Below are positions 22,858-26,647 of a DNA stretch of 64,000 nucleotides, piece by piece. Source of the stretch: an uncultured Chloroflexia bacterium. Lineage in GTDB: Bacteria > Chloroflexota > Chloroflexia > QHBQ01 > JAICKM01. Location of the stretch: assembly GCA_963784695.1 (NCBI GenBank), contig CAWARZ010000002.1, positions 1,115,513 through 1,179,512 on the forward strand. The letters are read 5' to 3'. Every line of letters starts with the position of its first letter. Position 1 is the first letter of the stretch. The notes under the pieces are model-generated. The model saw only the letters and a program-made list of their open reading frames with translations. It was not told the DNA's origin and did no database searches. The position numbers and the translations under genes were made by a program.

Positions 22858-24072
22858 ATGGTTAAGTCAATCTTGCCCCCCGGCGACACGGCGAACGTGC
22901 GCACCCCCGCCGGGACACTCGCCCCTCGGCCGCTCCAGATCGGCGACTCGGTCGTCGTCGAGCGGGATCGGCTCGGGCGGCTGATCGACGTCTTGCACGA
23001 GCACGGCTATGAGGTGGTGGGCCCGACCGTGCGCGACGGCGCCATCGTCTACGACACCCTCAGCGGGGTCGCGGATCTGCCCAGCGGCTGGACCGACGAG
23101 CAAGCCGGCGGGACCTATCGGCTCAAGCGGCGCGAGGACACCGCCCTGTTCGGCTACACCGTCGGGCCGCAGTCCTGGAAGGGCTATCTGCACCCGCCCG
23201 TGCTCACGCTCTGGCAGGCGCAGCGCGACGAGCACGGTTTCACGATCACGCCCCCGCCCGACGACGTGCCCCGGCGCGCCTTCTTCGGCGTGCGCGCCTG
23301 TGAGCTTGCCGCCATCCGCATCCAGGATCGCGTCTTCCTGGAGGGCGCGTACGTCGACCCGGCCTACCAGTCCCGGCGCGAGCGCAGCTTCATCGTCGCG
23401 GTCAACTGCGGCCAGGCCGGCAACACCTGCTTCTGCGTCTCGATGGGCAGCGGCCCGCGCGCTGAAGCCGGTTACGACATCGCGCTGACCGAGGTGCTGA
23501 CGCCCGAGCGCCACTACTTCGTGGCTGACGCGGGCACCTCGGCCGGGCTGGCCGTACTTGCGGCCGTCGACGCCACGCCGGCCGCCCTGGCTGAGACCGC
23601 CGCCGCAACGGACGTGACCGCGCGGGCGGCGCGCCAGATGGGCCGGACGCTCGACACCACCGGACTCAAGGACCTGCTCTACGCCAACGCCGATCACCCC
23701 CGCTGGGACGAGGTCGCGGCGCGCTGTCTGACCTGCGGCAACTGCACGATGGTCTGCCCGACGTGTTTCTGCACAACGGTCGAGGACGTGAACGACCTGA
23801 CCGGGCAGCAGGCCGAGCGGCGCCGCCGCTGGGACTCCTGCTTCACCATCGATTTCTCCTACATCCACGGCGGAAGCATCCGCCAGACGCCGAAGTCGCG
23901 CTACCGGCAGTGGATGACGCACAAGCTGGCCAGCTGGGTCGACCAGTTCGGCACGGCGGGCTGCGTCGGCTGCGGCCGCTGTATCACCTGGTGCCCCGTG
24001 GGCATCGATATCACCGAGGAAGCCGCGGCGATCCGCGCGAGCGCGCCCGCGGCGGCCGAACAGAGGGAGTGA
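22858..24072 (+). CDS. hyhB: [NiFe]-hydrogenase group-3b-type Fe-S subunit (AsrA-like, beta subunit)
   Basis: Track ORF 22540..24072 trimmed to ATG 22858 (GGAGGA 7 nt upstream). Two ferredoxin-type clusters: [16 protein letters not shown] and [15 protein letters not shown]. The AsrA/HydB-like N-terminal region includes [14 protein letters not shown]. Confidence 0.8.
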
Positions 24073-24075
24073 GCC

Positions 24076-24540
24076 ATGGATACGCTGGAGTATGTGCTGG
24101 CCGATCAGCCCTTCCTGAAGGGCATCCCGCTCGACAAGCTCGCGGAGATCGCCGAATGCGCGCACCCCGTGACGTTTAGCGCCGGAGACTACCTGTTCCG
24201 CGAGGGCGATCCCGCGAACCACTTCTACATCGTGACGCGCGGGCGCGTGTCCGTCGAGATGCATGTGCCGGGCAAGGGCGCCCAGGTGATCCAGACCGTC
24301 GACGACAACGAAGTGGCCGGCTGGTCGTGGCTCTTCCCGCCCTTCCGCTGGCACTTTGACGGCCGCGCCGTCACAGCCACCCGGGCGATCGACTTCAACG
24401 CCCTCTGCCTGCGCGGCAAGTGCGACGAGGACCATGACCTGGGCTACGAGCTGATGTGGCGCTTCGCCCAGACGATGATGACCCGGCTGCAAGCCACCCG
24501 GATGCAGCTCATCGAGGCCTATGCGGACGGGCACCGCTGA
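24076..24540 (+). CDS. Stand-alone cyclic-nucleotide-binding (cNMP) domain protein
   Basis: [48 protein letters not shown] is a CAP/PKA-type cNMP-binding beta-barrel. 154 aa, no HTH. Sits 3 nt after hyhB and 30 nt before hyhS. Confidence 0.8.
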
Positions 24541-24570
24541 CGGCAGCACGAGGTCTGACGAGGTTCACTT

Positions 24571-25360
24571 ATGACAACTACCCGGGCAACCGCCCGTAAA
24601 CCGAAGCTGGCCGTCTGGAAGTTCTCGTCGTGCGACGGATGCCAGCTCAGCCTGCTTGACTGCGAGGATGAGCTGCTGGCCGTGGCCGGCGCCATCGAGA
24701 TCGCCAACTTCCCCGAGGCCTCTCGCGCCGTGGTGCGGGGCCCCTACGACGTGTCGCTGGTCGAGGGATCCGTCACCAACGAACACGACGCGGCGCGCAT
24801 CCGCGAAGTGCGCAAAGCCTCGAAGTTCCTGATCAGCATCGGCGCCTGCGCCACCGCGGGCGGCATCCAGGCGCTGCGCAACTTCGCCGACGTGAACGAC
24901 TTCATCTCCTACGTCTACGCCACGCCGGCCTACATTCACACCCTGGCCGAGTTCGACGCCGATCTCGGCGCACGTGCCGGTCGACTTCGAGCTGCACGGC
25001 TGCCCGATCAACAAGTATCAGCTGCTGGAGGTGATTAGCGCCTACCTGCAGGGCCGCAAGCCGAACATTCCGCCGCACAGCGTCTGCATGGAGTGCAAGC
25101 TGGCGGGCACCACGTGCATCATGGTCGCGCAGGGCACGCCCTGTCTCGGCCCCGTGACGCACGCGGGCTGCGGCGCGCTCTGCCCGAGCTACGCGCGCGG
25201 CTGCTTCGGCTGTTATGGACCGAAGGAGACCGCGAACGCCGCCGCGCTGGGCGACCGCTGGGTGGCCCTTGGCGTCGCGCCGGCCGCGGTCGGCCGGGCC
25301 TTCCGCACGTTCAACGCCACCGCCGAGCCGTTCCGGAAGGAGAGTGCGCGTTATGAGTAA
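24571..25360 (+). CDS. hyhS: [NiFe]-hydrogenase small subunit (group 3 delta type), frameshifted as sequenced
   Basis: [16 protein letters not shown]...[12 protein letters not shown] in track ORF 24571..25038. The continuation, [22 protein letters not shown]...CMECKL...[15 protein letters not shown], is in ORF 24974..25360. Switch near 24955-24962. The span is 790 nt = 3n+1. Confidence 0.85.
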
Positions 25361-26647
25361 GACTCGCACCGTGCAAGTGAACTACCTGGCCCGCGTCGAG
25401 GGCGAGGGCGGCCTGTACGTCCACATCAAGAACGACATGGTCGACGACGTCCAGCTACGCATCTTCGAGCCGCCGCGCTTCTTCGAGGCCTTCCTGCGCG
25501 GCCGCGCCTACGGCGAGGCGCCCGACATCACGGCGCGCATCTGCGGCATCTGCCCGGTCGCGTACCAGATGAGCTCGGTCCACGCCATGGAGATGGCCTT
25601 CGGCGTCCACGTCGGCGGCCAGCTGCGCGCCCTGCGGCGGCTGCTCTACTGCGGCGAATGGATCGAGAGCCACGCCCTGCACATCTACATGCTGCACGCG
25701 CCCGACTTCCTGGGCTATCAGGACGCCATCACGCTGGCCAAGGACTACCCGGCCATCGTGCAGCGCGGCCTGGAGCTGAAGAAGCTGGGCAACGACATCA
25801 TGAAGCTGGTCGGCGGCCGCGAGATCCACCCGATCAATGTACGCGTCGGCGGCTTCTACCGTGTGCCCACGCGCCAGGAGCTGGCCCCGCTGGCCGAGCG
25901 CCTGGAGTGGGCGCACGAAGCGGCGCTGGAGACGATCGGCTGGGTGGCCGGGTTCACCTATCCGGAGTTCGAGCAGGACTACGAGTTCGTGGCCCTGCGC
26001 CACCCGGACGAGTACGCGATCAACGAGGGGCGGCTGGTCTCGAACCGCGGCCTGGACATCCCGATCAGTGAGTACGAGGAGCACTTCGCCGAGGAGCACG
26101 TGGCGCACGCGAACGCGCTGCATTCGGTGCTCAAGGAGCGGGGCGCCTACTTCGTCGGCCCGCTGGCGCGCTACAACCTGAACTTCGACAAGCTGCCTCC
26201 GGTGGTGCAGGAAGCGGCGCGCGGGGCGCGGGGCTGGGCCGGGTCGTTCGCAACCCGTTCCAGGGCATCCTGGTGCGCAGCGTCGAGCTGCTCTACGCCT
26301 GCGACGAGGCCCTGCGGCTGATCAACGCCTACGAGCGCCCGGACGCGCCGGCCGTGCCGGTGACGCCGCGCGCGGGCGTGGGCTATGGCTGCACCGAGGC
26401 GCCGCGCGGCCTCCTGTACCACCGCTATCGTGTCGACGAGGCGGGCCTGATCCAGGAAGCCAAGATCGTGCCGCCCACGTCGCAGAACCAGAAGACGATC
26501 GAGAGCGACCTGAAGCACTTCGTCGGCCAGTATGTCGACCTGCCGACGGAGGAGATGCGCTGGCGCTGCGAGCAGGCGGTACGCAACTACGACCCCTGCA
26601 TCTCCTGCGCCACGCACTTCCTGAAGCTGACGGTGGAGCGGGAGTGA
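25353..26647 (+). CDS. hyhL: [NiFe]-hydrogenase large subunit (group 3b-like), frameshifted as sequenced
   Basis: ATG 25353 overlaps the hyhS stop. ARVEGEGGL and the [11 protein letters not shown]-terminal Ni-binding motif are in track ORF 25215..26321. The C-terminal DPCISCATH motif plus a 9-aa extension is in ORF 26273..26647. Switch in the GC run at about 26215-26245. The span is 1295 nt = 3n+2. Confidence 0.88.

Follow-up and report, generated by a model that had tools for sequence, protein, structure and literature searches.

The 64,000-nucleotide stretch analysed here (contig CAWARZ010000002.1 of assembly GCA_963784695.1, from an uncultured Chloroflexia bacterium; hereafter “the window”) carries a [NiFe]-hydrogenase operon of the group 3b type, from which the gene for the gamma (diaphorase) subunit, hyhG, is missing. 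An orthologous hyhG lies 21 kb downstream, and the genes for the small and large subunits, hyhS and hyhL, each contain a switch of reading frame. In our reading, hyhG was moved out of an otherwise ordinary operon and probably still serves the hydrogenase from its new site. The operon and the relocated gene comprise the following features:

22858..24072, + strand: hyhB, beta subunit, AsrA/HydB-like with 4Fe-4S clusters (Pfam Fer4_22, E 9.5e-34)
24076..24540, + strand: gene for a cyclic nucleoside monophosphate (cNMP)-binding-fold protein of the “GWSW” type, 154 aa (Pfam cNMP_binding, E 9e-13)
24541..24570, + strand: 30-nt spacer occupying the hyhG slot of relatives; the GAGG Shine-Dalgarno (SD) sequence for hyhS is kept
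24571..25360, + strand: hyhS, small (delta) subunit (Pfam Oxidored_q6), with a frame switch of the +1 type at GAGTTC (24949-24954)
25353..26647, + strand: hyhL, large (alpha) subunit (Pfam NiFeSe_Hases on both halves), with a frame switch in a G-rich stretch at 26220-26238
26658..27203, + strand: hydrogenase maturation endopeptidase (Pfam HycI; NCBIfam TIGR00072, E 2e-33)
27196..27528, + strand: HypA-like gene (Pfam HypA, matched over profile positions 2-67 of 112 only)
45432..45648, + strand: 217-nt leader of the relocated hyhG, with AGGAGG 9 nt before the ATG
45649..46485, + strand: hyhG, gamma subunit, a diaphorase with flavin adenine dinucleotide (FAD), nicotinamide adenine dinucleotide (phosphate) (NAD(P)) and [2Fe-2S] domains (Pfam FAD_binding_6, NAD_binding_1, DHODB_Fe-S_bind)
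46495..46521, + strand: GC-rich 12-bp hairpin after the hyhG stop codon and before a convergent kinase gene (fold energy -35.1 kcal/mol, z -1.8)

A GGAGG SD sequence stands 7 nt ahead of the hyhB start codon, and the gene for the cNMP-like protein begins 3 nt past the hyhB stop codon. A domain search of the window genes found no FAD/NAD(P) gene within the operon, which leaves no space for a gamma gene. The initial annotation had proposed the order hyhB, cNMP-binding gene, hyhS, hyhL and protease gene, a gap of merely 30 nt ahead of hyhS without a gamma gene, and a sole gamma candidate in the window at 45649..46485. All of these coordinates are correct, and the gap is evident from the sequence. 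By six-frame search, the candidate is the single hyhG-type gene not only of the window, but of the entire 8-contig, 5.84-Mb assembly (G+C content of the source genome, 71%). The second hyhG elsewhere in the genome, which had been named as a possible objection, was not found in the assembly.

The usual place of hyhG was assessed by means of the cNMP-like gene. A scan of one genome per species retrieved more than 507 relatives of its product, spread over Actinomycetota, Chloroflexota, Acidobacteriota, Verrucomicrobiota, Pseudomonadota, Zixibacteria and others. The best 80 loci were examined, and 78 of these are informative, i.e., they extend at least 1 kb past the cNMP-like gene. hyhG directly follows the cNMP-like gene in 76 of the 78 informative loci, and in none of these loci of other genomes (0/78) does hyhS come straight after it without hyhG. 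Given these counts, the absence of hyhG from the window operon is not due to chance. Within the same order, orthologs of the cNMP-like protein occur at 50-74% identity in nine genomes; all eight loci examined there have hyhG after the cNMP-like gene, and seven of the eight have it between this gene and hyhS. The usual order in the same-order loci is hyhB, cNMP-like gene, hyhG, hyhS and hyhL, usually followed by protease and hypA-like genes (the sister-genus genome G007 excepted). The earlier statement that the gamma gene normally lies between the beta and delta genes holds with respect to the slot, and is refined for bacteria by the position of the cNMP-like gene between hyhB and hyhG. The split found in the window is not common to its relatives.

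Bacterial group 3b operons regularly contain the cNMP-like gene as their fifth gene, and it is thus no oddity of the window locus; the sole anomaly of the window operon is therefore the missing hyhG. The Pfam domain covers residues 32-111 of the 154-residue protein, which lacks a DNA-binding domain, and the gene follows directly upon hyhB, a placement that recurs in the 80 loci. A family-invariant motif, GWSW...P.RWH.D, appears to stand in place of the canonical phosphate-binding cassette for cAMP or cGMP (G-E-L...R-[ST]-A), as placed by eye against CRP and PKA. A cNMP-domain gene has been annotated in the five-gene group 3b cluster of Rhodococcus equi 103S (PMC13332983), and in “Methylocystis acidophilus” 29 the cNMP-domain gene of such a cluster was labelled HoxI (PMC12319191). 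These clusters comprise the same set of genes, coding for the 4Fe-4S, cNMP-domain, FAD/NAD(P), small and large subunits and a HyaD-type protease. In contrast to these clusters, the FAD/NAD(P) gene has left the cluster in the window, which is the case in none of the 76 hydrogenase-linked loci surveyed. The possibility that the cNMP-like protein replaces the gamma subunit was considered and rejected, since relatives carry both genes.

Some surveyed loci depart from the common pattern. Two close relatives of the cNMP-like protein (48-50% identity) are encoded in a Spirochaetia metagenome-assembled genome (MAG; L093, 6001-6453) and a Haliangiales MAG (L107, 141-587), and these are the two informative loci in which hyhG does not follow. 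Neither hyhB, hyhG, hyhS nor hyhL was found within 6 kb on either side of the former gene, or in the 6 kb downstream of the latter, upstream of which the sequence extends for only 140 nt. Because these copies occur without hydrogenase genes, the cNMP-like family is not strictly bound to hydrogenase operons. Furthermore, upstream of hyhB a Nitrospinaceae locus (L076) has an additional, divergent hyhG-like gene in the opposite orientation (3806-4438, - strand), and a Kiloniellaceae locus (L094) contains an extra hyhL-like fragment upstream of the operon (915-1457, + strand).

The class of the enzyme was assigned from the best PDB and NCBIfam matches, the NCBIfam scores all being under the equivalog cut-offs. 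Among PDB chains, the N-terminal 292 residues of HyhL match the alpha chains of sulfhydrogenases best (5yxy, 9e15, 9nez; E 1.8e-46 to 3.3e-45), followed by MvhA (group 3c, 3.5e-33), FrhA (3a, 1.8e-27) and HoxH (3d, 1.8e-26). The NCBIfam models ShyA (2.5e-60) and HydA (3.6e-54) likewise rank ahead of VhuA (7.6e-31). The top NCBIfam models are sulfhyd_HydB and ShyB, and also AsrA, for HyhB; ShyD and HydD for HyhS; and hydrogenase gamma and HydG for HyhG. For all four subunits, the alpha, beta, gamma and delta chains of the Pyrococcus furiosus and Thermococcus kodakarensis sulfhydrogenases rank first in PDB and NCBIfam. The two HyhL halves contain the NiFe-binding CxxC pairs, RICGIC (L1, RxCGxC) and DPCISCATH (L2, DPCxxC). 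The large subunit is encoded together with an Fe-S beta subunit of the AsrA-like kind and with a small subunit that is short and cytosolic.

Judged by these matches, the enzyme belongs to the bacterial [NiFe]-hydrogenases of group 3b (NAD(P)-coupled, sulfhydrogenase-type) and is related to the archaeal enzymes without being identical to them. The earlier designation as group 3b-like is upheld, in that the large subunit falls into group 3 by the PDB and NCBIfam rankings. P. furiosus sulfhydrogenases I and II (HydBGDA, ShyBCDA; 9e15, 9nez), the T. kodakarensis cytosolic hydrogenase (5yxy) and mycobacterial Hyh share the four subunit types with the window locus. Unlike in these reference enzymes, the gamma gene is found outside the operon here, 21 kb off, and a fifth, cNMP-fold gene is present that the archaeal enzymes lack. 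A gamma gene in the same operon belongs to the usual description of group 3b, and the window offers instead an orthologous gene at a distance; the location of the gamma gene is a matter of gene organisation and has no bearing on the identity of the enzyme.

Whether 45649-46485 encodes the gamma subunit of this very hydrogenase is a question of orthology. In a tree of 85 HyhG sequences, the window protein falls into a five-member clade with relatives from its genus and family (SH-like support 99), and the other members of this clade are all encoded within their operons. Its end branch (0.32, compared to 0.24-0.26 for its neighbours in the tree) is not unusual. The identity of 67% within the family and 53-60% within the order parallels the pattern of the other subunits. 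Of the 62 residues conserved in at least 95% of the other sequences, the window HyhG keeps 60, with changes from L to M and from P to Q, and the FAD/NAD and four-Cys motifs are intact. A foreign origin of hyhG was rejected, the tree grouping it with its own genus and family at a support of 99. Taken together, the relocated HyhG is the vertical ortholog and still under constraint, and it probably serves the hydrogenase in trans.

Alternatively, the gene at 45649-46485 might be a foreign copy, or might encode a flavoprotein of the PyrK/AsrB type that belongs to another enzyme; in that case, the hydrogenase would lack gamma and, as an alpha-delta-beta complex with the cNMP-like protein, pass its electrons to ferredoxin or another acceptor. 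The gene does stand alone among unrelated genes, and HyhG yields strong NCBIfam matches to AsrB and PyrK as well. In P. furiosus sulfhydrogenase I (SHI), the gamma subunit forms the end of the electron chain, which makes a gamma-less core conceivable. Yet, HyhG clusters with in-operon proteins of its own genus and family and not with foreign lineages, the models that rank first are those of hydrogenase gamma subunits, its divergence runs parallel to that of the other subunits, and there is no other gene of the hyhG type in the assembly that could serve the hydrogenase. We consider this alternative decidedly unlikely.

The ancestral state of both sites can be read from a genome of the same genus (G004), which contains a 13-gene block collinear with positions 39.9-53.9 kb of the window. 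In this genome, hyhG stays in the operon, and an AlaX-like gene and a convergent histidine-kinase gene abut with no gene between them; their frames overlap by ~85 nt at the 3' ends (L036 (G004:C2), 6338-6422), at the exact spot that hyhG occupies in the window. The corresponding stop codons in the window are 1107 nt apart, and the gap is filled by the 217-nt leader, hyhG and the 12-bp hairpin. Since G004 keeps hyhG in the operon and has an empty AlaX-like/kinase junction, the arrangement in the window is derived, with the 1107-nt filling as a derived insertion.

The DNA similarity to the hyhG genes of relatives is ~75% and does not extend beyond the coding sequence. Searches with the 217-nt leader, the 60-nt trailer and the operon junction yielded no further copy in the genome and no match in the relatives' loci searched, and neither a transposase or other mobile-element gene nor a repeat pair flanks either site. 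The 30-nt spacer contains GACGGCAGC, which is also found in the G004 spacer between the cNMP-like gene and hyhG, as well as two copies of ACGAGGT(T) resembling the SD regions of hyhG and hyhS in G004 and G005. These strings may represent remnants of a clean excision of the hyhG reading frame. A microhomology-mediated deletion between the two ACGAGGT copies was also considered; it is suggestive only, as both copies remain in the spacer.

The relocation might also be an artefact, i.e., the product of a chimeric or mis-joined metagenome contig. The assembly is error-prone at the base level, and the lineage is of the metagenome type, nearly all relatives being MAGs. Against this stands the need for two coordinated faults on the same 2.6-Mb contig, namely the clean excision of a single frame that spares the SD sequence of hyhS, and an insertion with unique flanks. 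Moreover, the errors seen in the assembly are indels and not rearrangements, and the codon score of hyhG matches the genome average (~0.5 per codon). A mis-assembly of this kind is very improbable.

At its new site, hyhG is monocistronic in appearance. The folding of its leader is no better than that of shuffled sequence (z -1.4), and no Rfam family was matched in the leader. A terminator scan revealed no intrinsic terminator around hyhG, the 12-bp hairpin lacking a U-tract. The hyhB and hyhG leaders both contain TTGCTA followed by a TAnnnT-like element, which we do not count as evidence for co-regulation.

The initial annotation further held that hyhS and hyhL carry single-base frameshifts as sequenced. 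Both switches are present in the sequence. In hyhS, a single extra T lies in GAGTTC (24949-24954), and without this T the protein reads as in every relative, with the same spacing. In hyhL, the switch falls within cgcggggcgcggggctggg (26220-26238), where compared to the relatives' EAAREAGLGRV either 2 bases are extra or 1 is missing; the single-base description fits hyhS and is one of two options for hyhL. Both halves of both genes retain a coding codon signal, contain no stops and are 52-83% identical to relatives, the hyhS halves sharing 65-83% identity with the single intact genes.

The meaning of these switches was judged against the genome as a whole. To this end, a codon log-odds score was trained on the long open frames of this genome, with values per codon of +0.49 in frame and -0.58 out of frame, and a frame switch was defined as a strongly coding segment that ends well before its stop codon, with another frame of the same strand taking over within 45 nt. 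The 5.84 Mb contain 584 such same-strand switches, of which 483 are +1 and 101 belong to the other type. The window accounts for eight of them, near 3873(-), 8638(-), 10046(-), 18399(+), 19155(-), 24969(+), 26249(+) and 62285(+). The strongest splits affect genes that by sequence reading code for IleRS (C2, ~1990600), CarB (C2, ~1507405), Mfd (C3, ~105817) and the class A penicillin-binding protein PBP1A (C5, ~45399), and these are not all true pseudogenes, because a living cell could not carry all of them as such.

The switches are also linked to sequence context. Of the +1 switches, 24% have GASTTC/GAASTC, i.e., GANTC plus one base, no more than 20 nt away, compared to 3.5% of random sites. 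At +1 switches, the enrichment of GAGTTC and GAACTC is 13- to 16-fold, and the hyhS shift is one such site. The switches of the other type are overrepresented at runs of at least four G/C (43% versus 28%), and the hyhL site is alike. The simplest reading is a motif-specific consensus error, for which methylation in a long-read assembly is possibly the cause. A methyltransferase gene of the N6_N4_Mtase family (PF01555, E 1.2e-65) is present outside the window (G000:C2:1738033-1738695, - strand); this family includes GANTC-specific enzymes, and its product is a candidate cause of the errors at the motif. The frameshifts in hyhS and hyhL are most likely consensus errors of the assembly and not a sign of pseudogenisation, with greater certainty for hyhS than for hyhL. 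The earlier observation stands in so far as the shifts exist in the sequence, and is refined by the genome-wide error pattern, which argues against gene decay.

If the frameshifts were real, the loss of hyhG and the lesions in hyhS and hyhL would together mark a dead, decaying enzyme, and the distant hyhG would serve another partner. Such decay is unlikely. Two switches do occur in adjacent structural genes of a 4.7-kb operon, where 0.47 are expected at the genome-wide rate (Poisson P ~0.08); at this rate, two are unremarkable. The HypA-like gene lacks its C-terminal part, yet relatives whose operons are intact have the short form as well. Frame switches of the kind seen in hyhS and hyhL also split IleRS and CarB and are no sign of gene death in this assembly, and the shift in hyhS coincides with the recurrent error motif, GAGTTC. 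Neither stops nor further lesions were found, and near-invariant residues are kept at 85 of 85 positions in HyhB, which is 63-70% identical to relatives, and at 88 of 89 in the N-terminal part of HyhL.

On balance, we give a probability of about 0.78 to an ordinary group 3b locus from which hyhG, a vertical ortholog, has moved by 21 kb while likely still supplying the gamma subunit, and in which the hyhS and hyhL switches are assembly errors. The ancestral operon would have consisted of hyhB, the cNMP-like gene, hyhG, hyhS, hyhL, the protease gene and the hypA-like gene. The hyhG reading frame alone would have been lost from it, leaving the ribosome-binding site of hyhS intact, and would have come to lie between the 3' ends of the AlaX-like and the convergent histidine-kinase genes, in new surroundings with a 217-nt leader, a strong SD sequence and a trailing hairpin. 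Because the relocated hyhG is the vertical ortholog and under constraint, continued assembly of an alpha-beta-gamma-delta enzyme is most likely, probably together with the cNMP-like protein and with gamma provided by a transcript of its own. As in the homologous P. furiosus SHI, electrons would pass from the NiFe site of HyhL via Fe-S clusters in HyhS and HyhB to the [2Fe-2S] cluster and FAD of HyhG and on to NAD(P)+. The analysis demonstrates the gene content, the relocation, the orthology, the conservation of residues and the error pattern across the genome; assembly in trans, this electron path and the manner of hyhG expression at its new site are inferred.

Several points weigh against this reading. 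The assembly is ~90% complete, and hence a second hyhG might lie in the missing part. The frameshifts and both rearrangement junctions are known from the assembled sequence alone. The hyhL switch is of the rarer type (~1 per 58 kb) and off the recurrent motif, and it might be a genuine mutation, which would also suit the decay of the enzyme. Finally, a consensus scan found no sigma-70 promoter upstream of hyhG, and no operator common to the hyhB and hyhG leaders was detected, the shared 11-mers being GC-rich chance matches.

Side observations concern the remaining neighbourhood and the hydrogenase gene content. The HypA-like gene lacks the part coding for the zinc domain, and its TIGR00100 score is under the cut-off; a short HypA-like gene is found downstream of the protease gene in several relatives, including those with intact operons. 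A GyrI-like gene (PF06445, 27518-28072) overlaps the end of the HypA-like gene. A second [NiFe]-hydrogenase large-subunit gene, of a type other than group 3b, lies outside the window at G000:C2:2333425-2334987 (- strand; open frame of 606 aa).

The sister genus provides a second case of a divided locus. One contig of G007 carries hyhB, the cNMP-like gene, hyhG, a spacer of ~170 nt, the protease gene and hypA (L019, G007:C11, 5935-9381), and hyhS-hyhL are found on other contigs (L125, G007:C261, 5273-8495; L126, G007:C624, 1-807), starting 4 nt after a P-type ATPase gene, the ortholog of which is on another contig in the genome of the window. The linkage is less certain in this case, G007 being a fragmented MAG of short contigs with a contamination of 4%. 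The G007 locus thus represents a second, different fission of the same operon family, less secure than the case of the window. Both operons are broken in two, and the moved module is hyhS-hyhL in G007, in contrast to hyhG in the window.

A further, doubtful possibility is that the removal of hyhG has uncoupled the diaphorase, such that a core of HyhBSL and the cNMP-like protein is made without gamma and uses another acceptor, and that HyhG is expressed with a timing of its own or also serves a different Fe-S partner. If this were true, then together with the move of hyhS-hyhL in G007 it would point to a lineage that reassorts the modules of its group 3b hydrogenase.

The displacement of the gamma gene is a rare variation in gene order (0/76 comparable loci), and the enzyme itself is an ordinary one of a known kind. 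The practical value of the analysis is larger than its direct biological weight, which is small. As frame switches are frequent in this genome and include a class that recurs at a specific motif, any finding of a “pseudogene” or “frameshift” from it is suspect as an artefact until reads show otherwise. Likewise, an operon-based call of a “hydrogenase lacking its diaphorase” needs a genome-wide check before it is believed. With regard to biology, the window indicates that a group 3b hydrogenase can have its gamma gene provided by a separate locus, and two independent breaks of one operon in one family constitute a natural test of the role of co-translation in subunit assembly.

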